From a virus (taxonomy: Duplodnaviria; Caudoviricetes): a stretch of 52,555 nucleotides of DNA. Each line of letters opens with the position of its first letter. Within the stretch, counting starts at the first letter, position 1. The stretch spans positions 1-52,555 of the IMG/VR virus record IMGVR_UViG_3300029998_000044. One strand, given 5' to 3'. A model generated the notes under the pieces. The model did no database searches and was not told the origin of the DNA. It saw nothing but the letters and a program-made list of their open reading frames with translations. Shown here piece by piece: positions 2,016 through 52,442 of this stretch. The translations under genes were made by a program, and so were the position numbers.

Positions 2016-2264
2016 ATGGAGCAACAGCCAAATTATGATGAAAAAGGAAGGATGAAGTATAGCCCTGAATACCATAGCAAAAACGGAACTTTATGGACTT
2101 ATGATGAACTTGACTACTTAATAACATGGTATGCAAAAATAGGCCCGGTAGAAATGTCTTTTGCACTTGAAAGAACAGTAGCATCCATTAACAAGAAGGT
2201 AGCAGACTTGAAAAAATCCGGCAAGATGGAAGATAAACCGAATGAAAAACATTTTACAAGATAA
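2016..2264 (+). CDS. Small phage protein, possibly DNA-binding (Myb/HTH-like)
   Basis: RBS GGAGG; WTYDELDYL...MSFALERT..SI pattern. Confidence 0.6.
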   Translation: MEQQPNYDEKGRMKYSPEYHSKNGTLWTYDELDYLITWYAKIGPVEMSFALERTVASINKKVADLKKSGKMEDKPNEKHFTR

Positions 2265-2290
2265 TCGCAACCTGAATAAATTGCGTCCGA
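2261..2290 (+). repeat. 30-bp cassette-boundary site
   Basis: ATAATCGCAAC-CTGAATAA-ATTGCGTCCGA; stop codon in left arm, RBS follows. Confidence 0.75.
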
Positions 2291-2299
2291 CTTTAGGAG

Positions 2300-3031
2300 G
2301 TGGGGAAAATCGAACAAAATAAAATATATTTAGGTGATTGTTTGGAATTGATGCCTAAAATAAAAGACAAATCGGTGGATATGATACTATGCGACCTTCC
2401 CTACGGAACAACACAAAACAAATGGGATAGCGTGATACCTTTGAATGAACTTTGGGGGCAGTATAACAGAGTTATAAAAGACAATGGAGTAATTGCATTA
2501 TGTTGTGTTGAGCCTTTTACATCAAGCCTTATAATGAGCAATTTGAAGCATTTTAAATATAAATTAGTATGGGAAAAGTCGAAAGCAACTAATTTTTTAA
2601 ATGCTAAAAAACAACCTTTAAGGAAATATGAAGAAGTAGCAATATTTTATAAGAAACCGCCTGTATATAATCCGCAAATGAGAGCAGGAGAGCCATACAA
2701 CAAAGGAATAAGGAAAGACCAACTAACAGGTAGTTATGGTGATTTTAAGCCCGTAGAAGTTAAGAGCGGAGGGTTAAGATACCCAACCGACATATTGTAT
2801 TTTAAGACAGCAGAAAGCGAGGGCGAAGTTTTTCACTCAACACAAAAACCTAAATCTTTGTATGAATATTTGATTAGAACATATAGCAACGAAGGTGATT
2901 TAATACTTGATAATGCTTGCGGTAGCGGAACAATAGGAGTTGCTCAAAGTATAGGTAGAAACTTCATGGGAATAGAAAAAGACGAACATTATCACGAAAT
3001 AGCAGTAAACAGAATTAAGGATTTTAAATAG
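2300..3031 (+). CDS. Orphan beta-class N6A/N4C DNA methyltransferase
   Basis: IYLGDCLE, DLPYG (motif IV), HSTQKP, DNACGSGT (motif I). Confidence 0.9.
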   Translation: MGKIEQNKIYLGDCLELMPKIKDKSVDMILCDLPYGTTQNKWDSVIPLNELWGQYNRVIKDNGVIALCCVEPFTSSLIMSNLKHFKYKLVWEKSKATNFLNAKKQPLRKYEEVAIFYKKPPVYNPQMRAGEPYNKGIRKDQLTGSYGDFKPVEVKSGGLRYPTDILYFKTAESEGEVFHSTQKPKSLYEYLIRTYSNEGDLILDNACGSGTIGVAQSIGRNFMGIEKDEHYHEIAVNRIKDFK

Positions 3032-3035
3032 TAAA

Positions 3036-3065
3036 TCACGAACAATTCAAATATGTTTTTCGTAA
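3036..3065 (+). repeat. 30-bp cassette-boundary site
   Basis: TCACGAACAAT-TCAAATAT-GTTTTTCGTAA. Confidence 0.8.
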
Positions 3066-3091
3066 TAAATTAAATGAAAGAAGGTATAAAA

Positions 3092-3334
3092 ATGAAAAAA
3101 TTATCAGTAACAATCAATTCAGGATTAATGGAATTGTCCAGCTACAGCAACGAAGTGAGAATTGAAAATATCAGAATCGAAGAAATCATAAGGTATAACT
3201 TGCCAAAAGAAATTCAAGTATCAAAGCCTTATATTGTAAACGCAAAGATTGAAATTGAAATCATAGAATCAGGAATACATGTTGATTCTGAGGGCTACGA
3301 AAATAAGGAGGGTATCACAAATGGAGAAGGTTAA
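3092..3334 (+). CDS. Hypothetical protein
   Basis: RBS GAAGG before MKKLSV; overlaps the next gene. Confidence 0.6.
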   Translation: MKKLSVTINSGLMELSSYSNEVRIENIRIEEIIRYNLPKEIQVSKPYIVNAKIEIEIIESGIHVDSEGYENKEGITNGEG

Positions 3335-3986
3335 TAAGGAACTTGAATTAAAGCCTGCAACAATGAACATATACCAGAAAATCCAGAAATGTAAATGTGA
3401 GCTTGGCAAGGCAGACCTGAAAAAATCAGGGAAGAATACCTATAGTAACTACAATTACTATGAATTAGGAGACTTCCTCCCAAAGATAAATGATGTAATG
3501 GACAAATACGGATTGACAGCAATATTTAACTTCAAGGAGGATTTAGCCTCCCTCACAGTAGTAAATTGCGAGAACCCATCCGAGACATTATATTTTAGCA
3601 CACCAATCTCAATAGCAACTTTAAAAGGGACCTACGCAATCCAGAACATAGGAGCTACACAGACCTATGCTAGGAGATACTTGTATGTAATGGCCTTTGA
3701 GATAGCTGAATCCGATGTACTGGACGAGAAGGAACATGACGAGGACCTTATAGAGAGAGGCCAAAAGATTAATAAGGTTAGAGCAGCAAGCATAAATGCT
3801 ATGTTGGAACAGACCGGAGCGGATGTTAAGGGATTCCTGAGATACTACAAGCTAAAGGAAATCGAGGACATAACAAATGACTTATTCCCGGACATAATGG
3901 CAGAACTGCAGAAGAAACTTGAAAAGGTAAAGAAAGCTCCGCTCCCGGAAGTAGGTAAAAATAAAGTACCGGACCTTGGTATGTAG
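3321..3986 (+). CDS. erf: ERF-family ssDNA-annealing protein
   Basis: KKSGKN..NYNYYELGD, IQNIGATQTYARRY.....F.I motifs. Confidence 0.85.
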   Translation: MEKVNKELELKPATMNIYQKIQKCKCELGKADLKKSGKNTYSNYNYYELGDFLPKINDVMDKYGLTAIFNFKEDLASLTVVNCENPSETLYFSTPISIATLKGTYAIQNIGATQTYARRYLYVMAFEIAESDVLDEKEHDEDLIERGQKINKVRAASINAMLEQTGADVKGFLRYYKLKEIEDITNDLFPDIMAELQKKLEKVKKAPLPEVGKNKVPDLGM

Positions 3987-4011
3987 CACAACATGAATAT
4001 ATGGTCCGTAA
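3982..4011 (+). repeat. 30-bp cassette-boundary site
   Basis: TGTAGCACAAC-ATGAATAT-ATGGTCCGTAA followed by TTAGAAAGGAG. Confidence 0.7.
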
Positions 4012-4014
4012 TTA

Positions 4015-4121
4015 GAAAGGAGAAAAATATGAGAACAACGGAAAAAAATAAAGAAATGGCAAATGCCTTACTTAAACTAATAGCGGAAAATCCAGAATTA
4101 GAAGTAGTCCCAATGGTGGAC
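4015..4121 (+). repeat. 107-bp exact direct repeat, copy 1
   Basis: Identical to 52449-52555. Confidence 0.95.
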
Positions 4122-4385
4122 ACAGAGTGTATTTTTGATGATAGCTACAGCACTTGGATGGCTAGATGGGGCAGTGCAGACATAGATGAATACTGGTGTT
4201 CAAATGAACGAGTGTATTTCAAATCAATAGATTTCGATACTTTAGTCGAAGAATTTATTGATAACAACTACGAAGATTATCCGACACTTTCGGATGAAGA
4301 TGAAGAATTGCAAAAGTTAGCAGAAGAAAAAATAAATGCCTACGATTGGATTAAGGCAATATCGGTCAATATTGTACATTGCTAA
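4029..4385 (+). CDS. Acidic hypothetical phage protein (118 aa)
   Basis: RBS GAAAGGAG; LLKLIAENPELEVVPMVD; flanked by 30-bp sites. Confidence 0.75.
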   Translation: MRTTEKNKEMANALLKLIAENPELEVVPMVDTECIFDDSYSTWMARWGSADIDEYWCSNERVYFKSIDFDTLVEEFIDNNYEDYPTLSDEDEELQKLAEEKINAYDWIKAISVNIVHC

Positions 4386-4460
4386 TCACGAACAATTCAA
4401 AGCTATTTCGCTATATGAAAAAATGGCGCACGATTCACAACTGCATAAAATTTTGAAAGA
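4386..4460 (+). repeat. Three stacked or overlapping degenerate 30-bp sites
   Basis: TCACGAACAAT-TCAAAGCT-..., TATTTCGCTAT-ATGAAAAA-ATGGCGCACGA, CGATTCACAAC-TGCATAAA-ATTTTGAAAGA. Confidence 0.6.
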
Positions 4461-4465
4461 GGTGT

Positions 4466-4690
4466 ATGAATATGAATTATGACAAAATGCCAAGCAGGGG
4501 CAAAATAACTTCTGATGGAGAATGGGCTAAGGATTGTGGTTGCGGTGGCAAAGCCTATGTCTTTTATGATGAAGATGCCACATACAATGTTGAATGTGAA
4601 AATTGCGGTACAGTTCTCAGGCTTATAACATCAAGCTTGGATGGGGCAATAAAGTTTTGGAATAATACATTAGAAGTTGGAGGTAATTAA
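4466..4690 (+). CDS. Zn-ribbon protein, Lar (restriction alleviation)-like
   Basis: CGCGG...VECENCG...AIKFWN pattern. Confidence 0.6.
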   Translation: MNMNYDKMPSRGKITSDGEWAKDCGCGGKAYVFYDEDATYNVECENCGTVLRLITSSLDGAIKFWNNTLEVGGN

Positions 4691-4948
4691 ATGAGTGCTG
4701 AAATAGTAATGGGAAACCTTGTTATGTGTAATATATGCCATAAAAGAATAGCCACAAAACTATGTGATATGCCTGTTAGAAGAACAAAAAACTTTCACAT
4801 AAAGATTAATGGAATGACAGATACAAATTTGAGCTTTAAAGAATATACCGCAACTTGTGACAAATATATCTGCGACAAATGTGCTGCAGAAGTTGGAAAC
4901 GGAATACACTTTTGCAAATCGTGTATGTCAAAGCTAAAAAGGGTATGA
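4691..4948 (+). CDS. Cys-rich Zn-binding hypothetical protein
   Basis: CNIC..ATKLCD...TCD..IC.KC......HFCKSC. Confidence 0.7.
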   Translation: MSAEIVMGNLVMCNICHKRIATKLCDMPVRRTKNFHIKINGMTDTNLSFKEYTATCDKYICDKCAAEVGNGIHFCKSCMSKLKRV

Positions 4949-5139
4949 CCATGATAAATAAATACAATTTAAACGATATTGTTAAAATTGAAAAAGGAAA
5001 TGAAGTTTACAAAATAGTTGGAATGCACTTAAACACATACAATAACCCCAAAAAGGTATGGTATTCGCTATATCGTTTATCGGATGGATATATATGCAAT
5101 ATTGCCGAAAATATACTTACACCTGTTATTGCTGTTTAG
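4945..5139 (+). CDS. Hypothetical protein
   Basis: ATGA overlap with previous stop; KYNLNDIVKI start; ends in a 30-bp site. Confidence 0.6.
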   Translation: MTMINKYNLNDIVKIEKGNEVYKIVGMHLNTYNNPKKVWYSLYRLSDGYICNIAENILTPVIAV

Positions 5140-5166
5140 TGCGCAATACAAAAATATTCTACATAA
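5137..5166 (+). repeat. 30-bp cassette-boundary site
   Basis: TAGTGCGCAAT-ACAAAAAT-ATTCTACATAA followed by GGAGG. Confidence 0.65.
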
Positions 5167-5178
5167 GGAGGTCTCAAC

Positions 5179-5319
5179 ATGGGTGGAAAGTATGAAGTAC
5201 GATATTGTTACAACGATACATTGCAAGTTTATCTATCGGAATATACAAACAGCTGGTTCAAATTTATGATACTGAGGTTCACCAAAAAGGTCATATATTA
5301 CAAGGTACAAATGTTTTGA
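5179..5319 (+). CDS. 46-aa hypothetical protein (not in ORF track)
   Basis: RBS AAGGAGG; MGGKYEVRYCYNDTLQVYLSEYTNSWFKFMILRFTKKVIYYKVQMF. Confidence 0.6.
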   Translation: MGGKYEVRYCYNDTLQVYLSEYTNSWFKFMILRFTKKVIYYKVQMF

Positions 5320-5446
5320 GCAAGAGAGATTGGATGGATGAAAGGAACAGAAGAATGCGGAGAGAGAAGAATATGGATGCAAGCTAAAAGAAATCAGCAT
5401 TAAAGGCTGGATTAAGGTAATATCGGTTGATATTGTACCTTGCTAA

Positions 5447-5476
5447 TCACGAACAATTCAAAAATATTATTCACAA
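5447..5476 (+). repeat. 30-bp cassette-boundary site
   Basis: TCACGAACAAT-TCAAAAAT-ATTATTCACAA. Confidence 0.8.
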
Positions 5477-5481
5477 TGTAC

Positions 5482-5510
5482 TTGACATACCCAATATATC
5501 ATGCTATAAT
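5482..5510 (+). promoter_or_regulatory. SigmaA promoter (extended -10)
   Basis: TTGACA-17bp-TATAAT with TG. Confidence 0.85.
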
Positions 5511-5543
5511 AAGTTATAAAGTTAAATAAAGGAGAGATAAATT

Positions 5544-5864
5544 ATGAAAAGAGCAGAGATATATTGGGTAGACTTAGGGGAAACAGTAGGTAGTGAACAG
5601 AGGAGATGTAGACCATGCTTAATAATACAAGCCAATTTAGGTAATGCAACCTCGCCTACAGTAACAATTGTTCCAATAACGTCTGCTACCAAGAGTTTCA
5701 CGATAACTCATGCCCCAGTAGATGGTCTTATTAAACCATCAATAGCATTATGTGAGCAGATAAGAACAGTTGATAAGAAAAGAGTAAAGGGTTATATTGC
5801 TACGGTAAGTGATTATACTATGATTAATATATCTGAAACAATAAGGTTGACATTAGGCTTATAA
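5544..5864 (+). CDS. mazF: PemK/MazF-family endoribonuclease, no adjacent antitoxin
   Basis: MKRAEIYWVDL...GSEQ...RPCLIIQ...N..SPTV..VPITS...EQIRTVDKKR. Confidence 0.9.
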   Translation: MKRAEIYWVDLGETVGSEQRRCRPCLIIQANLGNATSPTVTIVPITSATKSFTITHAPVDGLIKPSIALCEQIRTVDKKRVKGYIATVSDYTMINISETIRLTLGL

Positions 5865-5875
5865 TGTGGTATAAT
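5847..5875 (+). promoter_or_regulatory. SigmaA promoter
   Basis: TTGACA-17bp-TATAAT. Confidence 0.8.
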
Positions 5876-5909
5876 GATTACAGAAGTTAAATTTAAGGAG
5901 GATTAATAA

Positions 5910-6113
5910 TTGATACTTTATAGTAACGGATGCACAAACTGTGAACGATTGAAAGAGCAACTGGATATATCTAAAATTGAATATCAAGTTTCAAGTGATT
6001 ACAGAAGGTTGATTGAATTGAATATAAGGTCTGCACCATGCTTAGAATTTGAAGATGGAAGTTTCATGCTCTATGATGAAGCCATGATGTATGCCATAAA
6101 GAAAAGGGGATAG
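5910..6113 (+). CDS. Glutaredoxin/NrdH-like redoxin
   Basis: ILYSNGCTNC (CxxC) and cis-Pro motif SAPCL; upstream of nrdD. Confidence 0.75.
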   Translation: MILYSNGCTNCERLKEQLDISKIEYQVSSDYRRLIELNIRSAPCLEFEDGSFMLYDEAMMYAIKKRG

Positions 6114-6116
6114 ACA

Positions 6117-7895
6117 ATGGAAAAGCAATTATTAGATTCTAAAACATTAGTGGAGGATTATTTATTCAATAAAGATTGGAGGACAAAAGAAAATTCAAAC
6201 GCACCTAGAAGTTTTGGCTCGCTCAATAAATATATAATTGGAGAAGTTAGTAAAAACTATTGGTTGAATGAAGTATACAATAAAGAAATAAAATGTGCAT
6301 ATCTTAATGGTGATTTTCACATCCATGATTTAGGGGCATTAACATTATACTGCGTTGGATATTCATTAGAAAACATACTATTAATGGGGGTACAAGGTAT
6401 AAGTAATATACCAGTATCAAGTCCACCTAAACATTTCAAAAGTGCTTTATCACAAGTTGTAAATTTGGCAACAGTATACCAAAATGAACAAGCTGGAGCA
6501 GTAGCATTCAATTCCGTAGATACGTTATTAGCACCTTTTATACGAGAAGATGATTTGGATAAAATCCAAGTTAAACAAGAATTACAGAATTTTATATTTG
6601 CCTTAAATAGCAATTCAAGAATGGGGGCAGAACCAGCATTTACAAATATAACATTAGATATAACTCCTTCACCAGATATGTTGCGTAAAAATATAATCAT
6701 AGGTGGAGATTATAGATTGGATGTATATGGTGATTTTCAAAAGGAAATGGATTTATTTAATGAATGTTTTGCTGAAATAATGCTAGAAGGAGATAGTAAG
6801 GGTCAGCCATTTTCATATCCAGTATTGACTTATAATATAGGAAAGAGATTTGATTGGAATAATCCTAAAAATGATAAAATATTTGAAATGGCTGGTAAGT
6901 TTGGATATCCATATTTTTCAAATTTTATAAATTCTGAAATGGATGAATCTGATATAAGAAGTATGTGCTGTAGACTTAGATTAGATTTAACCGAGTTAAG
7001 AAGAAGAAATGGTGGATTATTTGGAGCAGGAGATTCAACTGGTTCAATTGGTGTAGTGACTCTAAATATGCCTAGAATAGGTTATATATCATCAAATGAG
7101 ATTGAATTTTTTAATAAACTAGATATTATATTGAATTTAGCAAAAGATTCATTAGAACTCAAACGAGTATTCTTGCAAAATGAAGTATTGGATGGTGGAT
7201 TAATTCCAGCTTATTCTCAATATGTTGGAACGATTGATAATCATTTTAGCACTATTGGTATAATTGGGTTTAATGAAATGTGTGAAAACTTTTTAGGAAA
7301 AGACATACTATCAATAGAAGGTAAAGAGTTCTCCGTAAAAGTTGGTGAATATATCTTAAATAAAATAAAAGAATTTCAAGTAGAAACTGGTCATCTATAT
7401 AATTATGAAGCATCACCTAGCGAATCAACTTGTTATAGACTGGCTAAAAAAGATAAAGAGTTATTTCCCGATATAATAACACAAGGTAATTCAGTTCCAT
7501 ACTACACTAATTCTTCTCATATACCAGTATCCAAAGTAACTACTATCAATGATATGATGGCACATCAAGAAGCTTTACAAGTTCAATTTACTGGAGGATG
7601 TGTAAATCATATATATTTAGATGGAGCAATATCTGGTGAACAAGCTAAACATATGGTTAAAACTTGTTTAACAAATTATAGAAATCCATATATAAGCCTT
7701 TCTCCAGTAAATAGATATTGTCCAGAACATGGTTATATTGAAGAACGAGTTGAAAATTGTCCTAAGTGTGGTATGAAGTTGGATATTATGCAACGCGTAA
7801 CTGGTTATTTAAGGAAAGTTGAAAATTTCAATGATGGTAAAAAAGAAGAATTTTATGATAGAAAACAATTTAATGGTATAATTGATTTAAAATAA
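6117..7895 (+). CDS. nrdD: Anaerobic class III ribonucleotide reductase (no ATP cone)
   Basis: GDFHIHDL, SMCCRL, YYTNSSH, C-terminal Zn site and glycyl-radical RVTGYL. Confidence 0.95.
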   Translation: MEKQLLDSKTLVEDYLFNKDWRTKENSNAPRSFGSLNKYIIGEVSKNYWLNEVYNKEIKCAYLNGDFHIHDLGALTLYCVGYSLENILLMGVQGISNIPVSSPPKHFKSALSQVVNLATVYQNEQAGAVAFNSVDTLLAPFIREDDLDKIQVKQELQNFIFALNSNSRMGAEPAFTNITLDITPSPDMLRKNIIIGGDYRLDVYGDFQKEMDLFNECFAEIMLEGDSKGQPFSYPVLTYNIGKRFDWNNPKNDKIFEMAGKFGYPYFSNFINSEMDESDIRSMCCRLRLDLTELRRRNGGLFGAGDSTGSIGVVTLNMPRIGYISSNEIEFFNKLDIILNLAKDSLELKRVFLQNEVLDGGLIPAYSQYVGTIDNHFSTIGIIGFNEMCENFLGKDILSIEGKEFSVKVGEYILNKIKEFQVETGHLYNYEASPSESTCYRLAKKDKELFPDIITQGNSVPYYTNSSHIPVSKVTTINDMMAHQEALQVQFTGGCVNHIYLDGAISGEQAKHMVKTCLTNYRNPYISLSPVNRYCPEHGYIEERVENCPKCGMKLDIMQRVTGYLRKVENFNDGKKEEFYDRKQFNGIIDLK

Positions 7896-7951
7896 AGATT
7901 GACAATGTATAAGTGACATAAATAATAATAGAAGGTGGAGGTATACAACAA

Positions 7952-8509
7952 ATGGTTAGATATAAATATATAGAACATGAACGCAGTGAAGATGCTAATT
8001 TTATTGGAGCATTGATAGTAGCATCTGATTGCAAAATAAAATGTAGAGGATGTTTTAACCGTGACATCAAAAAGATGGAAACGAAGAAGGATACTGCACA
8101 GAATATCATCAAGGAGGTGCTTTCTAATCCATTCAACGAGGGTATTATACTAGCTGGCTTGGAGTGGTCTAGCACACCTACAGACCTCGTAGAACTGGTC
8201 ACAGAAGCCGATAAACATGGTCTGAAGATAATGATATACACAGGATTAGATTTGGGTGAGTTTGAAATGAGGATAGGCAAGGCTTGTTGCGATAAGGTTG
8301 GAATTAAAGAACTTCCAAAAGATTACAATGATACTTCAATGATGTATGCTTGTATTGGTGGGATGGTTCTTGATAATGCAATCCATAGTGATTATTATAT
8401 AAAATCTGGAGCATATGTAAAGGAACTGGAAGTAACTGGTAGAGAAGCATTTGGTGTGACATTGGCAACAAGTAATCAGAATGTTATAAAAATTCAGAAA
8501 GAGGTGTAG
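7952..8509 (+). CDS. nrdG: RNR-activating radical SAM protein
   Basis: CKIKCRGCFN (CxxxCxxC), IYTG, SNQ; follows nrdD. Confidence 0.85.
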   Translation: MVRYKYIEHERSEDANFIGALIVASDCKIKCRGCFNRDIKKMETKKDTAQNIIKEVLSNPFNEGIILAGLEWSSTPTDLVELVTEADKHGLKIMIYTGLDLGEFEMRIGKACCDKVGIKELPKDYNDTSMMYACIGGMVLDNAIHSDYYIKSGAYVKELEVTGREAFGVTLATSNQNVIKIQKEV

Positions 8510-8510
8510 T

Positions 8511-9011
8511 ATGGAGAGGGAGATATGTTTCGCAAAAATGAGAGTGGATGCAATCATTCCTAGTAAGAATCTGGAAAATGCTGGGTATGATGTGTATGCC
8601 AACTTTCCAGAGGAATATATAGTTATAGAGCCACATGAAACCAAGATGATACCAACAGGAATTGCTAGTGTCCTTCCAGATAGCCTAGTGTTCGTTCTAA
8701 AGGAGCGAGGGTCTACTGGTACTAATGGTATGGGACAGAGGGCAGGAGTCATTGATAGTGGCTATAGAGGTGAATGGTTTGTACCTATCACCAATCACAA
8801 TGATGTTCCACTGGTAATCTATAAATGTATAGAATTGTTGGACTCAGACTTATTTCCAATAGATACCATATTCTATTCTTATAAGAAAGCAGTCTGCCAA
8901 GCAATATTGGTGGATGTTCCAGTTGTAAGAATCAAACAAATTCACAAAGACCAGCTTTCAAATTATGTGTCCGAGCGAGGTTCGGGGTCATGTGGTTCGT
9001 CTGGTAAATAA
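8511..9011 (+). CDS. dut: Trimeric dUTPase
   Basis: AGYD, IPTG, ERGS, GVIDSGYRGE, RGSGSCGSSG. Confidence 0.93.
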   Translation: MEREICFAKMRVDAIIPSKNLENAGYDVYANFPEEYIVIEPHETKMIPTGIASVLPDSLVFVLKERGSTGTNGMGQRAGVIDSGYRGEWFVPITNHNDVPLVIYKCIELLDSDLFPIDTIFYSYKKAVCQAILVDVPVVRIKQIHKDQLSNYVSERGSGSCGSSGK

Positions 9012-9037
9012 TCATAATATGAATAAATGGCGAGCAA
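9008..9037 (+). repeat. 30-bp cassette-boundary site
   Basis: ATAATCATAAT-ATGAATAA-ATGGCGAGCAA; contains the dut stop codon. Confidence 0.7.
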
Positions 9038-9055
9038 CTATATGGAGGTTCAAAA

Positions 9056-9205
9056 ATGGGAGATAATAACTATATTGTTTGTAACAATGATTTGTGCAAA
9101 TATTGGCGAACAGAGGGTAAATGCACATATTGGAAAACAGGAAACTGTGTAGAAATTGAAGTTGAAAATGGTGTATCAATATGCAAATCTTTTGAAGCGG
9201 ATTAA
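9056..9205 (+). CDS. 49-aa Cys-rich protein (single-gene cassette; not in ORF track)
   Basis: RBS GGAGG; MGDNNYIVCNNDLCKYWRTEGKCTYWKTGNCVEIEVENGVSICKSFEAD. Confidence 0.7.
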   Translation: MGDNNYIVCNNDLCKYWRTEGKCTYWKTGNCVEIEVENGVSICKSFEAD

Positions 9206-9231
9206 TCGCAATACAAAAATAGTGTGATTGA
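9202..9231 (+). repeat. 30-bp cassette-boundary site
   Basis: TTAATCGCAAT-ACAAAAAT-AGTGTGATTGA. Confidence 0.8.
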
Positions 9232-9255
9232 GAGGGGAGGAATCCTCTCTTTTTT
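9231..9255 (+). terminator. Rho-independent terminator
   Basis: AGAGGGGA-GGAA-TCCTCTCT-TTTTT. Confidence 0.8.
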
Positions 9256-9269
9256 ATTTTTAAAAAGGG

Positions 9270-9298
9270 TTGACATGGTGTAATATTCATGGTAGAAT
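9270..9298 (+). promoter_or_regulatory. SigmaA promoter
   Basis: TTGACA-17bp-TAGAAT. Confidence 0.75.
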
Positions 9299-9437
9299 AA
9301 GGTATAGTCAAATTAAAGAAGGAGTGAGATACATGAGTGGTCAAGAAATGGTAGTGGTTTGCATAATTAAATTATGGTGGATAATAATTCCATGTATCAT
9401 AGGTGGAATATTAGTCTACAAAACTGAAAAATAGTTG

Positions 9438-9466
9438 TTGACAAGTACACTTCAAAGTGGTATACT
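9438..9466 (+). promoter_or_regulatory. SigmaA promoter
   Basis: TTGACA-17bp-TATACT. Confidence 0.8.
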
Positions 9467-9506
9467 AAGTATAGAAAGTTAAATAAATCAAACGGAGGTA
9501 GTTAAA

Positions 9507-10139
9507 ATGAAAGCATCAATTAGACCAATGATAGAAAACCTAGAGTTATTATTTGTAGTACTTAATGAAGAATACTTTAATGGTGAATTGGAAAAACCAG
9601 TTATAACAATCGCACCAGACACTACTAAAGGTGCTTATGGATGGCTGACTAATTGGAGGGCATGGCAAGAAGAAGGTACAGAAGGTTACTATGAAATCAA
9701 CTTGTGTGCAGAACATACTGCAAGAGGTTACAAAGCATTAGCTGAAACATTATTACACGAACTAGTTCATCTGTACAATCTCCAGAAGGGTATAAAGGAC
9801 TGTTCAAGAGGTGGCACTTACCATAACAGGAAATTCAAAATCATGGCTGAAACAAAGGGACTCATGGTAGAGCAGAGCCAGAAAAACGGATGGGCATACA
9901 CACAGTTGAACCCAGAAACCAACAGATTCCTTGACACTGTAACAGGAATAGATTTTGTACTATTCAGAAGCAAAGTTGAAAGTTCATCTTCAACAAAGAA
10001 GTCAAGTAGTAGAAAATACGTATGTACACAATGTGGTCAGTCAATCAGAGCCACTAAAGAAATCAAAATACTTTGTGGTGAGTGTTCAACAGAAGATGAT
10101 TTATGGATGATGATATGCGAAGAAAGTGATGAAGATTAA
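9507..10139 (+). CDS. SprT-like zinc metalloprotease
   Basis: TLLHELVH (HExxH), YHNRKFK, C-terminal Zn ribbon KYVCTQCG..IRATK....CGEC. Confidence 0.88.
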   Translation: MKASIRPMIENLELLFVVLNEEYFNGELEKPVITIAPDTTKGAYGWLTNWRAWQEEGTEGYYEINLCAEHTARGYKALAETLLHELVHLYNLQKGIKDCSRGGTYHNRKFKIMAETKGLMVEQSQKNGWAYTQLNPETNRFLDTVTGIDFVLFRSKVESSSSTKKSSSRKYVCTQCGQSIRATKEIKILCGECSTEDDLWMMICEESDED

Positions 10140-10165
10140 TCACAACATGAAAAAATTGTGACCGA
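10136..10165 (+). repeat. 30-bp cassette-boundary site
   Basis: TTAATCACAAC-ATGAAAAA-ATTGTGACCGA. Confidence 0.8.
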
Positions 10166-10177
10166 TTGAGGGGGGGT

Positions 10178-10345
10178 ATGATTATGAAAAATAGATATGA
10201 TGGAGTATGTGTATTTTGCTCTTGCAAAGTGCCTAAAAAAGATGGTATATGCTTTGAAAATAAAGAAAAAGGTTGGGTAATATCATGTTTTAAATGTGCT
10301 AATGTAGGTGTTAATTTAAACAAAAGATTAGATAAATTACGTTAA
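10178..10345 (+). CDS. 55-aa Cys-rich protein (not in ORF track)
   Basis: MIMKNRYDGVCVFCSCKV...SCFKC...; G-rich RBS; stop codon lies in the next site arm. Confidence 0.65.
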   Translation: MIMKNRYDGVCVFCSCKVPKKDGICFENKEKGWVISCFKCANVGVNLNKRLDKLR

Positions 10346-10364
10346 TCGCAATTCGAGCGAGCAA
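10342..10364 (+). repeat. Collapsed 30-bp site (left arm plus right-arm remnant)
   Basis: TTAATCGCAAT-TC-GAGCGAGCAA; compare right arm ATGGCGAGCAA at 9027. Confidence 0.6.
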
Positions 10365-10376
10365 GGAGATAAGTTT

Positions 10377-10508
10377 ATGGAAACTGTAAAAATTGATTGT
10401 AGATGTAAAGATTGTGAACACAGTGAAATTAAAGGTGATGGAGTAGGTAATGACAATATCATAGAATGTGACAGCTACGCATCGAAAAATGAGGAATGGG
10501 GAAAATAA
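10377..10508 (+). CDS. 43-aa Cys-rich protein (not in ORF track)
   Basis: RBS AAGGAG; METVKIDCRCKDCEHSEIKG... Confidence 0.6.
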   Translation: METVKIDCRCKDCEHSEIKGDGVGNDNIIECDSYASKNEEWGK

Positions 10509-10510
10509 AG

Positions 10511-10540
10511 TTACGAACAATTCAAATAAATTATTCGTAA
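10511..10540 (+). repeat. 30-bp cassette-boundary site (most symmetric copy)
   Basis: TTACGAACAAT-TCAAATAA-ATTATTCGTAA (10/11 inverted-repeat match). Confidence 0.85.
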
Positions 10541-10556
10541 TTTGAAAGGAGAAATC

Positions 10557-10853
10557 ATGGAAAAGAAAAATTGTTGGAACTGTAAACACTATGTGTTTTC
10601 AATGATTGTTTTACCTTGTTGTTATTGTAAGGATTGTAATAAATGGGAAAGAAGAAATTATGATGATTCAAAATGTCCATGTTGCCCTAAGTGTGGTTCA
10701 GAGGATTATGTTGAAGTAGAGGAAGGTATCAAATGCCCATTCTGTGGTCAGATAGATGATAGGGGTGATAAAGAATGTTCAATGTGTAGAAGGTCATTGG
10801 ATGATGGTATAGAAGTGGTGTACGGTGATGGCGAAGTATGGGAGGTAGAATAA
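10557..10853 (+). CDS. Multi-CxxC Zn-finger hypothetical protein
   Basis: RBS GAAAGGAG; several CxxC pairs. Confidence 0.65.
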   Translation: MEKKNCWNCKHYVFSMIVLPCCYCKDCNKWERRNYDDSKCPCCPKCGSEDYVEVEEGIKCPFCGQIDDRGDKECSMCRRSLDDGIEVVYGDGEVWEVE

Positions 10854-11003
10854 TGAGTATTCTTACAATTGATTATGGTTTAATTCCAATAGTATTAGTA
10901 GAGAATAGAAGGGGAATTAGATGTATAGATGGTGTTGAAACCTCAGAAGGGGAGTATTATGATATAATTCAAGTAGCCGATGAATTTTATGCAATGAAGG
11001 AGT

Positions 11004-14357: not shown

Positions 14358-14660
14358 ATTACAGACCAGTTACAAGTTGAATTGAAATCAGTACAATGAT
14401 TGGTATCACTGGGTTACAACTACTATTATAATTTTAATATATTAAAAAGGTTGTAACCTTCTGTAATTATTGATATGACTGGATGGAGCATATATATTAC
14501 TATATAATACAACTATTTCTTCTAATAAAAAGTAATATAAAGTAATATATAAATGATATATATAGAGAATAGGAAAGTTGCGTAATCTGTAATTTGAAAT
14601 TTAAAGAATTAAGCTATTACTTGCTTGCGAGGATTTCAAAAATTACAAAATTACAGAACG
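14338..14660. other. Putative replication origin 1 (TTACA/TGTAA iterons around an AT-rich core)
   Basis: Many TTACA(G) and (C)TGTAA repeats; blocks shared with 41410-41665. Confidence 0.6.
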
Positions 14661-15277: not shown

Positions 15278-15570
15278 CTATGCCCAGAAATAATAGGGGT
15301 AGAGTGGTCAAAATAGGCATTTTTACGATGGGGCTATAGGCTGATTCCCAGACTTGATATTTTGATTTGCTCAACGGAGAGCATAGGGAAATGTGTTCAA
15401 CGTATACTTTGTTCACTAAGGGGGTAAAGTCGCTTAGAATGGCTCTAAATCGCATAAATAATCATTCTCCGTTAGACCTACTTTCAAACTCTATAGGTTT
15501 ATGTGAAAGTTTACTTTCAAACTCTATGGGTTTTTACTTTCAAACCCTATATGTCTATGACTGGATGTGC

Positions 15571-15790
15571 GAATGTTTCGAAAATTGTGAATCTTCTGAA
15601 TATTGTGAATGTTTTGAATTTTCAGACAATTCAGATTAGTGTGGGTTGTGCGAAATGTTCAAACAATTCAAACAAATAGAACAAATGAAATAATTCAGAA
15701 TATTGTGAATGTTCGGAATGGTACGAACGTTCGTGTTTTTTCCAATAATTCGAATAGTTCATACAATTCAAACAATATATCGAATTGTGT
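15571..15790. repeat. Degenerate 9-bp tandem array
   Basis: GAATGTTTC GAAAATTGT GAATCTTCT GAATATTGT GAATGTTTT GAATTTTCA GACAATTCA ... Confidence 0.75.
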
Positions 15791-24555: not shown

Positions 24556-25965
24556 ATGGAAAGACAAGATGATTTTAAAACAATATTAGAGATGCACAAT
24601 GCTAATATTGGAAGATTAAATAGCAAACAATTGGAAAATATTGTTCGTGAACAGTACAAAGTTTACGGTTGTTTTTGGAACAAAGGCTCAAGCCCAACAT
24701 TGACAAGAATGCAGGACGCAAGGGGAGCAGTGGCAAACGCAGGAGTTGATGCAGTAAAAGCCTACAACGAATTTGATTTAACGCCGTTGTTTAAAGACTT
24801 TACGGAGGTTACTGACAGCTACGGCAATGTGTTTGTAAGAATCCCTAAGATGTATATTAAAAAGGTTGATGCAAGTGGCTACAAATCAAGACAGATAAGC
24901 AGAACGCCATTTACAGGAGCATATCTGCCAGAATGCTTTAAAAACCAAGCAACAGGCTTAGAACTTGATTATATTGATGTGGGTAAATATGTAGCCACTA
25001 CCACGGACGGTACAAAGCTTGAATCAAAAGCTGGCGCATATCCCCTGATAAACAAAAATATAGTACAGTTCAGGGATATGGCAAAAGCTAATAATATTGG
25101 CGCGATAAAAGGTTATCAGATAATGGACATCCATGTTATGGATTTATTGCAGACATTGTTTTTGATAGAGTTTGCAACGATAAACAGCCAGAGTATAGTT
25201 GCGGGATATACAAATGGCCAATATACGGATACGCACCTGATAACATTAGTTACGACAAACACGAACACAGCCATAGTGGCAAATGCAACAGCCGCGTTAT
25301 ATGCAGTAGGACAAGTAATATCAGTTGGCTCAACGCAAGGCGGAAATCAGAGATTTTACGGACGAACAATAACGGCAATAGGAGCAAACGATTCAGGCGG
25401 CGCAGGAAATGCCGTAATAACTTTTGATGGTGTGGTGGCAAGTTTATCCGTAAATGACAGACTGTATAATACGGGCATGAAAACAGGGTTTAGTTCTGCC
25501 ATAACCACAAGCGTTGGCAGCCCTACATCAAACTCAGATGGTAAAAAATCATTCGTTTATCATGGCATAGAATCGCTATACGGTGATGTTTGGCAGTTTG
25601 TAGATGGTCTTAATATTAACGAGAAGCAAGCGTGGGTTTGCAAAAATGCAGATAACTACGCAAGTAATGTGTTCGCGGCACCTTACGAGCAGTTAGGATA
25701 TGTCAACGGAAATACTGATGGATATACAACGGCAATGGGTTATGATGCAAATTTACCGTTTTGTGAACTACCAGTGGCAGTCGGCGGCGCATCAACAACT
25801 TATTACTCGGATTATTATTATCAGACCACCGGTCAGAAGGTGGCTCGTGTTGGCGGCAGCTGGAGCAATGGCGGTAATGCCGGTTTGTTCTTCTGGAGTC
25901 TGTACTACACGTCCTCCTATGCCGGCGTCGACATCTCCTCCCGCCTTCTTAGAAAAGCCCTGTGA
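24556..25965 (+). CDS. Receptor-binding/fibre protein with C-terminal CLec (FGE-like) DGR-target-type domain
   Basis: VFVRIPK, GIE.LYG.VWQFVDG, RVGGSW.NG..AGLF.W.L....S.....ISSRL. Confidence 0.8.
   Translation: MERQDDFKTILEMHNANIGRLNSKQLENIVREQYKVYGCFWNKGSSPTLTRMQDARGAVANAGVDAVKAYNEFDLTPLFKDFTEVTDSYGNVFVRIPKMYIKKVDASGYKSRQISRTPFTGAYLPECFKNQATGLELDYIDVGKYVATTTDGTKLESKAGAYPLINKNIVQFRDMAKANNIGAIKGYQIMDIHVMDLLQTLFLIEFATINSQSIVAGYTNGQYTDTHLITLVTTNTNTAIVANATAALYAVGQVISVGSTQGGNQRFYGRTITAIGANDSGGAGNAVITFDGVVASLSVNDRLYNTGMKTGFSSAITTSVGSPTSNSDGKKSFVYHGIESLYGDVWQFVDGLNINEKQAWVCKNADNYASNVFAAPYEQLGYVNGNTDGYTTAMGYDANLPFCELPVAVGGASTTYYSDYYYQTTGQKVARVGGSWSNGGNAGLFFWSLYYTSSYAGVDISSRLLRKAL
24621..24650 (+). 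repeat. 30-bp site embedded in frame in a CDS
   Basis: TAGCAAACAAT-TGGAAAAT-ATTGTTCGTGA; right arm is the exact reverse complement of TCACGAACAAT. Confidence 0.7.
25840..25950 (+). other. DGR variable-region-like segment (no TR or RT in window)
   Basis: 37 consecutive codons with no third-position A, GC-rich, ending TCCCGCCTTCTT. Confidence 0.75.
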
Positions 25966-26299: not shown

Positions 26300-26434
26300 A
26301 TGAGCGGATATTTAGCAATGAGAATAGAATTAGGTAGATTGGATTATGCAGCAGTTGTGGCAAAATACACACAGTTTAAGGCTGAAATAGACGGAATACT
26401 TATCAATGACGGATTTCAAAGTTTAATAGTTTAA
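26300..26434 (+). CDS. 44-aa fibre-associated protein (not in ORF track)
   Basis: MSGYLAMRIELGRLDYAAVVAKYTQFKAEIDGILINDGFQSLIV; stop codon in site arm. Confidence 0.7.
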   Translation: MSGYLAMRIELGRLDYAAVVAKYTQFKAEIDGILINDGFQSLIV

Positions 26435-26461
26435 CTCGCAATTGATTAATATTGTTCGTAA
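26432..26461 (+). repeat. 30-bp cassette-boundary site
   Basis: TAACTCGCAAT-TGATTAAT-ATTGTTCGTAA. Confidence 0.8.
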
Positions 26462-30045: not shown

Positions 30046-30447
30046 ATGGCGGTTTCAACAGTTACTACCACACTAAATTATAAAGTTTTAGTTGGAGATA
30101 GTTATGCTAAGTTGTGCGATATAGTTAGTTATCCAGATTTGGGTTCAGCACCTTCCAAACTTGATACAACTGATTTAGCACAGACTAGTGTAAAAACTAA
30201 TATTCTTGGACTGCAAGATGCACCAGATTTAACATTTGAGTGTAATTATGATGAAGCAACGTATAACACAATAAATGCTTTGAATAAATCTACTGTATAT
30301 TTCATACAATTATTGTTTGGAACAGATGGTGCATTTACTTGGACTGGTCAAATAAGAGCATATGTAACTGGTGCTGGTGTTGACGAAGTTCGTAAAATGA
30401 GCATAGTCATTGGAACTTATACACCAATTGCATTCGCAGTAAACTAA
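30046..30447 (+). CDS. Tail tube protein, copy 1
   Basis: DI.SYPDLG..P..LDTTDL......I.GLQD...LTFECNY. Confidence 0.85.
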   Translation: MAVSTVTTTLNYKVLVGDSYAKLCDIVSYPDLGSAPSKLDTTDLAQTSVKTNILGLQDAPDLTFECNYDEATYNTINALNKSTVYFIQLLFGTDGAFTWTGQIRAYVTGAGVDEVRKMSIVIGTYTPIAFAVN

Positions 30448-30460: not shown

Positions 30461-30871
30461 ATGGCAATATTAAGTACAGCTAATACTACACTTAATTATT
30501 GTGCCACTCAAGGTGGAGTATATACGAAACTTGTTGATATAGTTTCTTATCCAGATATGGGTGCTTCTCCATCTAAGTTAGACACAACTGACCTAAGTGC
30601 TACGGTATCTAAGACTAATATTCTTGGACTGCAAGATGCACCAGATTTAACCTTTGAATGTAACTATGATGAAACAGCATATAATACTTTGAAAGGTCTT
30701 ACTGGTACTTACTGGTTTAACCTATTCTTTGGAACTGCTGGAGCAGATGGTATATTCGAATGGCAAGGAAAAATAAACGTATTTAGTACTGGTGGTGGAG
30801 TAGACGAAGTTAGAAAAATGTCTGTAGTTGTATCTAATGCTACACCAATAACTTTCGAATATTCTGCTTAA
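30461..30871 (+). CDS. Tail tube protein, copy 2
   Basis: Clear paralog of the 30046 protein. Confidence 0.85.
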   Translation: MAILSTANTTLNYCATQGGVYTKLVDIVSYPDMGASPSKLDTTDLSATVSKTNILGLQDAPDLTFECNYDETAYNTLKGLTGTYWFNLFFGTAGADGIFEWQGKINVFSTGGGVDEVRKMSVVVSNATPITFEYSA

Positions 30872-41409: not shown

Positions 41410-41665
41410 AATTACACAGAATATTCTGTCTGTAATTGCGTAATCTCCATCTGTAACCCAGCAAACCGTTGATATGACTAAGTTCTTTCTTCATAAATTA
41501 CAGATTACACCTTTTTTCTAAATAAAAAGTAATATTAGTAATAGTATAAAGTATATATAAGGAGTATAGGAAATCAGCGTAATTTTGTAATTTACATGAC
41601 TTAGACCAGTAATAGCCTTATTCTTTGAGTAATTAAATCTGTAATGTTCTGTAACCTAAAGTAAT
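41410..41665. other. Putative replication origin 2
   Basis: TTACA/TGTAA iterons; blocks homologous to 14338-14660. Confidence 0.6.
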
Positions 41666-41734: not shown

Positions 41735-42199
41735 ATGAAGTTGACAAAAGAACAGGCTGAATTAGTTACCAAACATCATTCTCTTATATACTGGTATATC
41801 AATATGTATCATTTGGAAGTTAGTGAGTGGTATGACCTATTGGCAATAGAGTTGTGCTATACTGCTATGAACTATGATGCTGAGAAGGGTGCGTTTTCAT
41901 CTTATTTTAAAAAGAGAGCCAATTGGAAACGAGCCAAAGAATATAGAAAGTCCCAGACTCAGAAAAGAAGTTTTCAAGGAGTTACCTATATAGAAGGGTT
42001 TCACAATACCAACTATCAATCAGATGTACACGATATATTGGAACTGCAAGATTGGATTGAGGATGACGCAACGGACGTACTACTATATAAGAGTAGAGGG
42101 TTCAACCAAAGTGAGATAGGAGATATACTTGGAGTGAGCCAGACTCATGTATCCAAAACACTTAAAAAATTAAAGGAGGAATATACTATTGACAGATAA
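41735..42199 (+). CDS. Phage sigma70-like factor
   Basis: Region 2 (LV..H..LI...YD...G.FS.Y) and region 4 HTH (GFNQSEIG..LGVSQ..VS). Confidence 0.8.
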   Translation: MKLTKEQAELVTKHHSLIYWYINMYHLEVSEWYDLLAIELCYTAMNYDAEKGAFSSYFKKRANWKRAKEYRKSQTQKRSFQGVTYIEGFHNTNYQSDVHDILELQDWIEDDATDVLLYKSRGFNQSEIGDILGVSQTHVSKTLKKLKEEYTIDR

Positions 42200-42692
42200 G
42201 AAGATGTCTGATATAATGAGTAATATAGTAGTGGTAGTAGATTCCAGAGAGAAACAGAATGACCATATCCTTTCATATCTCAAGGATAATGATATTCCCT
42301 ATATCGTAGAAAAACTTCATTCTGCGGACTACTCATTTATATTGCCCGACTATCCAGAACTTAACATGGACAGAAAGATACTTGTGGAAAAGAAGAACTC
42401 ATTGGATGAAATATCACAGAACTTCACAAGTGGTCGAGAACGGTTCGCCAGAGAATTTGAAAGACTTACCGATGAAAAGATACACTTGGTAGTCGAGGAT
42501 GCCACATGGAAGAAGTTGACAAAAGGTTCGTATAGAAGCAAACTACCTCCAAAATCATTCACTGCTTCTATGCTTACTTGGAGTATAAGGTATCGGTGTC
42601 CAGTATGGTTTGTTGGAAGGGATGAAAGTCCAGAGTTGATACACAAGTTGTTACACTATGAATTATTAGAATTTTTGAAAGGGATGAAATAA
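42189..42692 (+). CDS. ERCC4/XPF-family nuclease (resolvase-like)
   Basis: VDSREK, L..ADY, VEKKNSLDE, RF.REF. Confidence 0.88.
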   Translation: MTDKKMSDIMSNIVVVVDSREKQNDHILSYLKDNDIPYIVEKLHSADYSFILPDYPELNMDRKILVEKKNSLDEISQNFTSGRERFAREFERLTDEKIHLVVEDATWKKLTKGSYRSKLPPKSFTASMLTWSIRYRCPVWFVGRDESPELIHKLLHYELLEFLKGMK

Positions 42693-46913: not shown

Positions 46914-46988
46914 TAAATCGTAGTCTAATGGTAAGACAACACACTTTGACTGTGTTAATTAGAAGTTCGAATCTTCTCGATTTAACCA
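46914..46988 (+). tRNA. tRNA-Gln(TTG)
   Basis: Acceptor TAAATCG/CGATTTA, D arm GTCT/AGAC, anticodon ACACA-CTTTGAC-TGTGT, T arm AGAAG-TTCGAAT-CTTCT, encoded CCA. Confidence 0.9.
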
Positions 46989-47120: not shown

Positions 47121-47122
47121 AT

Positions 47123-49522: not shown

Positions 49523-49553
49523 AGGTTTATGTTAGAGGAAGGGGATTGAGCCT

Positions 49554-51482: not shown

Positions 51483-52088
51483 ATGAAAACAATAATAAAT
51501 AATGTAGATGGTAGTTGGAAAAATGTTAAAAACAAGTGTCGCACCACTATAAACAAGGAATATTCGGAGGTGGATGCGTCACCTTCCTTTATTTACAAAT
51601 TGCTAATATCAGAGCATAGTCCAATTAGATTGATAAGTGTGGATTGGTCTTGGAAGAAAATACCATATTGGGTTTCAACTGAATGGAGTAGACACAAATT
51701 TGAAAAGTTCATTTCAACACAGAGAACGGATAGGACAGGGATTGAACGAGCCATACTTCCACAAGGAGTTGATGTAAACTTTGATGGATATGCTAATGCT
51801 CAAAACCTCATAGATGCTTGGCGAAAGAGATTATGCTTTCAAGCCACACCAGAAGCCAGAGGACTTGCTATGGACTTCAAATTGAAACTGCAAGATGTGG
51901 AAGTAGAACTTGCAAACGTGCTTGTTCCTAATTGTGTATATCGTGGTGGGTGTCCAGAATTTGTACCTTGTGATTTCTATGGTAAGTTTGTAAATTATTG
52001 TTATGAACATAGTGTGAACATGAATAACATTCAATCCAGATATGATGCTTATAATGAGTTTGTAAGTATACCAGAGTGGTTAAAATAG
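51483..52088 (+). CDS. thyX: FAD-dependent thymidylate synthase
   Basis: EHSP, SRH, STQR, RKRLC.QA..E, PNC.YRGGCPE. Confidence 0.8.
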   Translation: MKTIINNVDGSWKNVKNKCRTTINKEYSEVDASPSFIYKLLISEHSPIRLISVDWSWKKIPYWVSTEWSRHKFEKFISTQRTDRTGIERAILPQGVDVNFDGYANAQNLIDAWRKRLCFQATPEARGLAMDFKLKLQDVEVELANVLVPNCVYRGGCPEFVPCDFYGKFVNYCYEHSVNMNNIQSRYDAYNEFVSIPEWLK

Positions 52089-52115
52089 GGTACAATATGA
52101 ATATATTGTTCGTTA
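52086..52115 (+). repeat. 30-bp cassette-boundary site
   Basis: TAGGGTACAAT-ATGAATAT-ATTGTTCGTTA followed by TTAGAAAGGAG. Confidence 0.8.
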
Positions 52116-52135
52116 TTAGAAAGGAGAATTAAACA

Positions 52136-52339
52136 ATGAGTAAAGCAGACCATCCATATAATAACGTCTTAGGAACACTTGATTTTACAGAAAAGGAAGG
52201 ACTTTTCAAGATAGTACAAAGTAGGTTTGATGATGCGATTAGCATCTTGATAGCAGGACATTTATGGATTGATATAACCGAAGAACAATATGCACATCTG
52301 CAAGATGCAATAAATCTAAGAACAGAAAGAGGATATTAA
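52136..52339 (+). CDS. Hypothetical cassette protein
   Basis: RBS GAAAGGAG after a site. Confidence 0.65.
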   Translation: MSKADHPYNNVLGTLDFTEKEGLFKIVQSRFDDAISILIAGHLWIDITEEQYAHLQDAINLRTERGY

Positions 52340-52340
52340 T

Positions 52341-52416
52341 ATGCTTGGATTAAACACTATTTACAATATGGATTGCTTATGAAGAATATTTAAAATTTCC
52401 AGAATGGTTAAGATAA
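52341..52416 (+). pseudogene. Fused remnants: MTase N-terminus plus diverged thyX 3' end
   Basis: MLGLNTIYNMDCL* overlaps AYEEYLKFPEWLR* (thyX ends AYNEFVSIPEWLK*). Confidence 0.65.
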
Positions 52417-52442
52417 GAATAATATGAATAAATTGTGATTAA
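52413..52442 (+). repeat. 30-bp cassette-boundary site
   Basis: ATAAGAATAAT-ATGAATAA-ATTGTGATTAA. Confidence 0.75.

Follow-up and report, generated by a model that had tools for sequence, protein, structure and literature searches.

The viral record IMGVR_UViG_3300029998_000044 (Duplodnaviria; Caudoviricetes), analyzed here in its entirety and referred to as the window, comprises 52,555 bp with 34.8% G+C, and its called genes lie without exception on the + strand. It carries many copies of a short repeat, with the consensus GAACAATTCAAAAATATTGTGA among the Clostridia phages that share it, which stands between small accessory genes. An initial annotation had described about 17 such sites as the inverted-repeat recombination sites of a new gene-cassette system. 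The repeat occupies a fixed place between stop and start codons, recurs in unrelated phages and is clearly a place where mosaic junctions are concentrated; how it comes to be so is the question addressed below.

Genes of the window assigned through PHROG and Pfam encode an endolysin, a DNA methyltransferase, an Erf-like protein, a MazF-like protein, NrdD, an NrdG-like protein, dUTPase, the small and large terminases, a RecT-like protein, an exonuclease, SSB, an HNH endonuclease, DNA polymerase, primase, portal, the major head protein and an ERCC4-type nuclease. Counterparts of the DNA polymerase in Paenibacillus, Staphylococcus and Bacillus phages share about 52% identity with it, and the window is thus assigned to a phage of Firmicutes; a DNA-level comparison with named phages gave no match.

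A repeat family between stop and start codons

The family stands far above chance at the positions listed in Table 1 by its arm patterns, by a position weight matrix (PWM) and by R1, a sequence-only model. The B-type pattern ACGAACAAT-N8-ATTGTTCGT, with up to three mismatches allowed, has 6 matches where 0.02 are expected, a number that none of 100 shuffles reached, and the A-type pattern TAATCRCAAY-N8-ATTGYGATTA has 3 sites against 0.08 expected. In leave-one-out scoring 12 of 13 sites exceeded 12 bits, the exception being site 5137, and shuffled genomes gave 0.33 matches at 12 bits or more (both strands). R1 found 14 matches on the + strand at E<1e-3; the three on the minus strand at E<0.01 mirror palindromic sites and are weaker. 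The existence of the family was therefore borne out, but not the strict core CAAY-N8-ATTG by which it had been defined, which is unenriched (12 matches against 8.2 expected, with 17 of 100 shuffles reaching 12) and is present in 6 of the 17 sites originally listed. The number of sites also has to be reduced: the stacked copies 4404 and 4431 are incomplete, 10342 has collapsed, and 24621 lies in frame within a gene and is probably a coincidence, comparable coding look-alikes being found in the unrelated loci L023 and L026:336.

The consensus of 40 intergenic copies, nnnAnTnAnGAACAATTCAAAAATATTGTGAnnAAnnnn, has an asymmetric A-rich middle in which several columns are conserved at 90% or more, flanked by arms that assort independently, as the combinatorial arm types of the initial annotation had implied. 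The single orientation noted there was confirmed, since all 14 intergenic copies of the window lie on the gene strand, and so was the placement: in 14 of 14 copies a distance of 2-11 nt separates the end of the upstream stop codon from the CAAY core, and a Shine-Dalgarno sequence and start codon follow in 11 of 14, roughly 30-50 nt from the core. The remaining copies are those at 9202 and 26432, which are followed by a terminator-like hairpin, and that at 5447, which is followed by a consensus promoter. The arrays consist of open reading frames (ORFs) that have no promoter of their own, each with a site at its 3' end and all co-oriented.

Table 1. Coordinates of the repeat copies and associated features in the window
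Feature	Positions	Strand	Context	Scores and remarks
Site 2261	2261..2290	+	between 82-aa ORF (stop 2262-2264) and DNA methyltransferase gene (2300-3031; phrog_67)	PWM 26.5, leave-one-out 12.7; R1 E=5.8e-4
Site 3036	3036..3065	+	methyltransferase gene 5', 80/86-aa ORF 3'	2 mismatches to B-type pattern; R1 E=1.1e-5
Site 3982	3982..4011	+	between Erf-like gene (3321-3986) and gene X (4029-4385)	R1 E=3.6e-5
Multi-gene block	4015..5395	+	1.38 kb: X, two Zn-ribbon genes, two small ORFs	about 100% identity in two co-occurring phages
Sites 4386, 4404, 4431	4386..4460	+	gene X to 72-aa Zn-ribbon gene; site 4386, then stacked partial copies 4404 and 4431	E=9.4e-4, 7.1e-3
Site 5137	5137..5166	+	62-aa ORF to 46-aa ORF	weak; leave-one-out PWM 6.5; R1 E=2.6e-5, R1 having been trained on this site
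Remnant and site 5447	5408..5476	+	gene X 3'-end remnant (39 nt, 5408-5446), then site 5447	consensus promoter at 5482 (12/12)
Site 9008	9008..9037	+	dUTPase gene (phrog_135) 5', 49-aa Cys-rich ORF 3'	R1 E=1e-5
Site 9202	9202..9231	+	49-aa ORF 5', intrinsic terminator (9230-9254) directly 3'	2 mismatches to A-type pattern
Site 10136	10136..10165	+	SprT-like gene (Pfam) 5', 55-aa Cys-rich ORF 3'	A-type pattern; R1 E=2.9e-6
Site 10342	10342..10368	+	before 43-aa ORF	left arm, shortened middle, Shine-Dalgarno; missed by R1 at E<=5
Site 10511	10511..10540	+	before 98-aa ORF with 14 Cys	best palindromic copy; 1 mismatch to B-type pattern; RNA fold -9.4 kcal/mol, z=-3.0
Look-alike 24621	24621..24650	+	in frame within tail-type gene, encodes KQLENIVRE	PWM 20.0
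Site 26432	26432..26461	+	isolated in structural region; 44-aa ORF 5', terminator-like hairpin 3'	B-type pattern; R1 E=4e-4
Site 52086	52086..52115	+	201-aa ThyX-like gene (weak Thy1 Pfam match) 5', 67-aa ORF 3'	B-type pattern; R1 E=5.6e-6
Remnant and site 52413	52340..52442	+	ThyX-like gene 3' remnant (ends 52416), site 52413, second start of gene X	A-type pattern

Pairing between the arms is not selected. Over 40 sites, 64.4% of cells were paired against 64.6% after shuffling (278 of 500 shuffles were equal or better) and the covariation score was 0.163 against 0.167; over 21 sites pairing was 65.6% against 62.2%. Fold energies of the sites range from 0 to -9.4 kcal/mol with no T-run, and of eight stretches made up of site plus Shine-Dalgarno sequence two folded better than shuffles at z<=-2 and four had a positive z. 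Because the arms do not covary in 40 sites, the element is neither a folded attC-like strand nor a hairpin under selection, and an RNA or single-stranded DNA hairpin is ruled out by the weak folds together with the absent covariation. The right arm is missing altogether from four copies (10342 in the window, 10150 in the record G001, 1401 and 522 in L091), and no two neighboring sites have the same 8-nt spacer, while of all 136 site pairs only 4 do.

Several known signals were considered and rejected. Rfam gave no match at E<=1 over positions 1-11000, a tRNA being the sole match at gathering score. The sites have no consistent sigma-70 promoter: a promoter scan gave no match scoring at least 11/12 inside any of them and placed strong promoters at 5482, 5847, 7899, 9270, 9438 and 11191. 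By eye, readings as extracytoplasmic-function-type (GAAC-N17-CGTA), extended -10, sigma-54, CodY, LexA, NrdR or ArgR-like signals fit only a few copies each. Near-consensus TTGACA-N17-TATAAT/TATACT promoters, often with TG upstream, mark operon starts at 5482, 5847, 9270, 9438 and 11191; copies of a promoter-associated repeat family occur at 9427, 42797, 42889, 44840 and 46300, and also at 11182 and 16586, and the same promoter family is present in relatives without sites.

Mosaic junctions and two probable co-occurring phages

The population data were contigs, not raw reads, of four peat-metagenome runs, placed on window positions 1-11000. The window is probably an assembly chimera (lariat) of two co-occurring phages, so its site copies belong to more than one genome. 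Its final 110 bases (52446-52555) repeat 4012-4121, with identity starting at the Shine-Dalgarno sequence of gene X. A second endolysin paralogue and the Erf gene lie within 1-4011, and RecT and the exonuclease in the remainder of the record, which gives the window two single-strand annealing systems, Erf and RecT. Depth in run X16 was 9-15 over 1-5395 and 0-3 over 5506-11000, the latter being used solely jointly with the depth ratios of other runs; in run X7 it was about 7-10 at 1-3877, about 26 at 4015-5388 and 18.6 at 5435-11000. A 7,556-nt contig of run X3 reaches 3.7 kb past the first base of the window. We read phage A as window positions 1 to about 5395 and phage B as a circular 48,434-bp genome, 4015-52445. 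The multi-gene block is a single 1374-nt unitig (4015-5388) whose depth in run X7 is about the sum of both flanks and which is present in run X16.

In L006, a relative of phage B, the primase gene leads directly into a promoter with a MazF-like gene, a small gene of redoxin-like type and NrdD behind it. Measured against L006, the array of small genes and sites, about 3.9 kb, that phage B has between primase and this promoter is thus an insertion. The MazF-like gene of the window (5544-5864) is served by a separate consensus promoter and has no evident antitoxin gene as neighbor, and it is kept before the redoxin-like gene and NrdD in this site-less relative (L006 3468-3785).

Contigs of the four runs branch from the window at 4002, 4015, 4027, 3070, 3085 and 5464. 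At 3070 and 3085 they show alternative upstream contexts of site 3036; these two positions, like 4015 and 4027 at site 3982, lie between right arm and start codon. The contig of run X3 departs at 5464 (core +10 of site 5447) and continues with a variant right arm of the G001 type. Gene X is 92% identical between the window and G001, and the similarity begins at the site 5' of X and ends at 4401, within the spacer of the site 3' of it. Relative to the core, junctions fall at +26/27 and +38/42 besides those at +8 to +15. The left half-site tends to remain attached to the gene 5' of it.

Three insertions carry direct repeats consisting of the 3' end of the upstream gene, the left arm and the spacer, which extend some 39 to 155 nt past the site. 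A 61-nt repeat (4347-4407 and 5408-5468, 90% identity) comprises the 3' end of X, the left arm and the spacer, and ends at core +14. In L160 the Erf 3' end, with left arm and spacer, recurs after the shared block (155 nt, 98.7%); this second copy ends at 4002 (core +13), and a different right arm and a different gene come next; the same join is found in run X23. A weaker repeat places a ThyX-like 3' remnant, left arm and spacer on both sides of the 67-aa gene. The block is joined to the second Erf copy within 16 nt of near-identity (5380-5395 and 3848-3863), that is, by microhomology. The joint 4002->5375 of the contig layout was not used as evidence.

Site-specific cassette exchange, as originally proposed, would have a recombinase supplied in trans bind both arms, cross over in or near the 8-nt spacer, and excise or insert units of gene plus site. 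The anatomy is truly cassette-like, with a promoterless ORF and a site in each unit; five junctions split the site, so that left arm and spacer accompany the upstream gene and the right arm accompanies the downstream one, and the stacked partial sites at 4386/4404/4431 resemble scars. Several junctions do fall inside sites, but they are not confined to the spacer and scatter as far as the start codon. Tyrosine recombinases require matching overlap regions between partner sites, and here the spacers do not match, the arms are degenerate (or, on the right, missing) and do not covary, and the inserts are flanked by duplicated gene remnants. Since the junctions scatter, the duplicated gene ends reach beyond the site and one join uses microhomology, homology-driven and illegitimate recombination is favored over conservative site-specific exchange. 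The tyrosine-recombinase or integron-type mechanism thus fared poorly, and we regard this form of exchange as quite improbable.

Distribution, cargo and candidate partners

At least five further records of Clostridia phages or prophages, with hardly any genes in common with the window, contain the element, in agreement with the initial suggestion that different phages have it in common. What the site-bearing records do share with the window is only gene X, or the methyltransferase, Erf and HNH genes, or a few replication genes. G001, a 16.4-kb record with only gene X in common, has 8 intergenic copies, one of them collapsed, in gene orientation. In the 124-kb record G002 (28% G+C), which shares only methyltransferase, Erf and HNH homologues, the fetched stretches gave 11 matches at E<=0.05 on the gene strand, the genes being same-stranded across that region. 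The 49.7-kb record G005, which has terminal repeats, holds 3 copies and a Lachnospiraceae metagenome-assembled genome 2-4, and a rough search of the 4.2-Mb Clostridium cuniculi genome, in which 150 of 8004 candidates were scored, gave 7 clustered matches. A Clostridium cuniculi contig, L175, has a longer non-coding repeat at 919-977 and 1342-1400, composed of the element and a second half-copy, each after a T-run, perhaps the same family in another arrangement. Matches in wide pattern scans were mostly coding coincidences (26 of 27, about 51 of 56, 19 of 20 scanned, and 7 of 9 loci), examples being YEQFKNI and a conserved gene read antisense.

Closer relatives of the phage do not have the element: 16 loci with primases 34-76% identical to that of the window have no site at 12 bits or more. 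These 16 loci also have no analogous intergenic repeat family and only promoters in common, and relatives at 62-76% primase identity differ in accessory genes without any site, a point that also counts against site-specific exchange.

The cargo genes were described in the initial annotation as promoterless and small, with methyltransferase, ERF, Lar-like and Zn-finger types. Promoterless small genes, the methyltransferase and ERF were upheld (PHROG and Pfam), and Lar-like cargo found no Pfam match at E<=0.01. Many ORFs next to sites in the window, G001, G002, L091 and L109 are Cys-rich, Zn-ribbon-like peptides of 32-98 aa without family assignment. Gene X is the only family shared among 69 flanking ORFs, and the methyltransferase and Erf homologues of G002 are not flanked by sites, so the idea that cassettes generally travel with their own sites was rejected.

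Could the element be without function, namely inherited intergenic DNA of small genes that was multiplied by duplication and passed on with its flanks? Many copies are indeed degenerate or collapsed, and some repeats reach into the flanking genes. The flanking genes, however, are mutually unrelated apart from X, yet a 22-nt block has been kept between them, and neutral intergenic DNA would not outlast genes in conservation. We find this explanation hard to credit.

A partner protein was sought among the site-bearing phages. The window and G001 encode no tyrosine (PF00589) or serine (PF00239) recombinase, in line with the absence of a recombinase from the window as first annotated. G002 has two PF00589 recombinases, which would favor site-specific exchange, but neither adjoins a site cluster. 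In an all-against-all ORF comparison of phage A, phage B, G001, G002 and G005, in which G001 and phage A are incomplete, there was no DNA-binding protein common to all site-bearing phages. The sole family common to phage B, G002 and G005 was an ERCC4-type nuclease, whose gene in the window (42189-42692) lies beside the RecT/exonuclease module. It was rejected as a partner since it is also present in four site-less relatives (L009, L013, L014 and L015), which leaves site-specific exchange with no protein family specific to the phages that bear sites.

A variant of cassette exchange would have the site cut at the edge between spacer and right arm by a host Xer-like recombinase or an unrecognised nuclease, encoded away from the sites. 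The half-sites would then part, the left one going with the upstream gene and the right one with the downstream gene, and the gene remnants would be one-ended by-products. We consider this version a long shot.

A purely regulatory role, which the initial annotation had named as its alternative in the form of a start-associated element, has to be weighed more seriously. A host protein or RNase would bind the block, as an operator, a stoperator-like roadblock or a site of processing or translational control, and junctions would be found there since selection keeps junctions intergenic. The strict co-orientation with transcription, the fixed placement between stop codon and Shine-Dalgarno sequence and the conserved asymmetric middle fit such a role; conservation in unrelated phages of differing G+C points to a host factor, and clusters of sites are restricted to early or accessory operons. 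Nevertheless, Rfam had no match, the hairpin is not selected, the sites have no consensus promoter, and relatives of the same lineage express comparable operons without the site. In the Clostridium genome, within the rough search described above, the matches were few, clustered and prophage-like and not spread across host operons. On balance a purely regulatory site seems unlikely, although it is not to be dismissed.

Further repeats and genes were observed elsewhere in the window. Short direct repeats of 25-26 nt units, some spaced by 9 nt, are clustered at 15479-15719, just 3' of the small terminase gene, and could act as a signal for packaging or for replication. Both edges of the structural gene block, at 14524-14586 and 41521-41583, have a copy of an AT-rich repeat of 63 nt (76% identity). 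In the tail region, adjacent paralogues at 30046-30447 and 30461-30871 represent a tandem duplication, with a 77-nt stretch of 90% and a 56-nt stretch of 77% identity. A tRNA gene (Rfam RF00005, 69 bits) lies at 46914-46985 between the SSB-like and HNH endonuclease genes.

The element as a possible linker for module exchange

The explanation that we prefer, with as much doubt as confidence, is that the element is a portable intercistronic linker which serves as a short-homology patch for module exchange, similar to the PeSL elements discussed below but with neither promoter nor terminator. Its layout would be an upstream stop codon, a conserved, weakly structured, A-rich block of about 22 nt (GAACAATTCAAAAATATTGTGA), a variable tail, a Shine-Dalgarno sequence and the next start codon, and it would connect the small accessory genes, without promoters of their own, that form arrays inside operons of several Clostridia phages. 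The conservation, orientation and lack of structure of the element point to a portable, open intercistronic leader, and its everyday role would be that of an open, context-independent translation start region for any downstream gene.

Because otherwise unrelated modules have the block in common, the linker could act as a short patch of homology, and we infer that recombination uses it in this way. Modules would be joined there by general or short-homology recombination together with illegitimate joins. RecT-like, exonuclease and ERCC4-type nuclease genes are present, as is Erf in the second phage; candidate enzymes are the phage RecT/exonuclease, Erf, or host functions. Since modules could be joined at the linker by homology or by illegitimate recombination, new genes would accrete successively at the ends of operons.

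Several observations weigh against this explanation. Five of six within-site junctions lie in a narrow zone at the edge between spacer and right arm (core +8 to +15), and a fixed crossover point would also produce a narrow zone. Five or six further junctions lie inside genes or elsewhere (4064, 4993, 5102, 5395/5407 and 9423), so recombination is not confined to the element; these tallies come from population contigs and cover 24 of 42 loose ends. The conserved patch, about 16-22 nt, is at or below the length that single-strand annealing proteins are generally said to require. Finally, phages whose G+C ranges over 28-39% have kept the sequence, which suggests a constraint stronger than evolvability, that is, some molecular function, and the conserved block may be bound by a host factor.

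How does the element compare with known systems? According to a proposal cited in PMC3029335, phage mosaicism results from homologous recombination where module boundaries have short conserved sequences in common; the same paper states that such sequences are not findable at most mosaic boundaries. Here, by comparison, one explicit family stands at many boundaries in several unrelated phages. In PMC2839356 and PMC4122927, the PeSLs (promoter-early stem-loop regulatory cassettes) of T4-type phages are described as having the order stop codon, element, Shine-Dalgarno sequence and start codon, and as mediating shuffling by homologous recombination; each includes a promoter of sigma-70 consensus and a terminator stem-loop that is stable and often G/C-rich, and mini-circles were demonstrated. 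PeSLs are intergenic repeats among small non-essential ORFs that bound insertions, deletions and replacements between phages, as we find here, and they differ from the Clostridia element, which has no sigma-70 promoter and no stable terminator stem-loop. The phages considered here have Clostridia as hosts and are of siphovirus size or of the 124-kb type, not T4-like. PeSLs appear to be the closest analogue; the Clostridia element may work like a PeSL but is not one.

Integron attC cassettes and dif/pdif modules each consist of a promoterless ORF and one imperfect inverted-repeat site per unit, in direct arrays. The direct, co-oriented arrays described here likewise have one site after each promoterless ORF; unlike in integrons, there is no integrase beside the array and no conserved folding or compensatory pairing. 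Spacers that do not match, junctions at variable positions and duplicated remnants of genes set the element apart from attC, dif and pdif, and in comparison with the core sites of tyrosine recombinases (loxP, FRT, dif, pdif) its arms are degenerate and four copies have lost the right one. The SAS/ESAS sequences of mycobacteriophages and the stoperators of cluster A are many co-oriented short sites near gene starts or stops across the phage genome. The likeness lies in co-oriented short sites beside gene starts or stops; the sequences and hosts are others, an ordinary Shine-Dalgarno sequence stands here between site and start, there is no common repressor, and the sites are confined to accessory arrays. 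A full-text literature search did not find the element described in Clostridia phages, which is no proof of absence.

In summary, short conserved boundary sequences have long been proposed for phage mosaics and have rarely been found, and here an explicit family stands at many module boundaries, with co-occurring variants in natural samples differing exactly at the element. Exchange that proved to be site-specific would amount to a cassette system of a new kind. A linker working in the proposed way would offer a natural, portable means of connecting genes when Clostridia phages are engineered. The element offers a testable handle on how small accessory genes, such as those for Cys-rich Zn-ribbon peptides, methyltransferase and Erf, spread among the phages of anaerobic Firmicutes.

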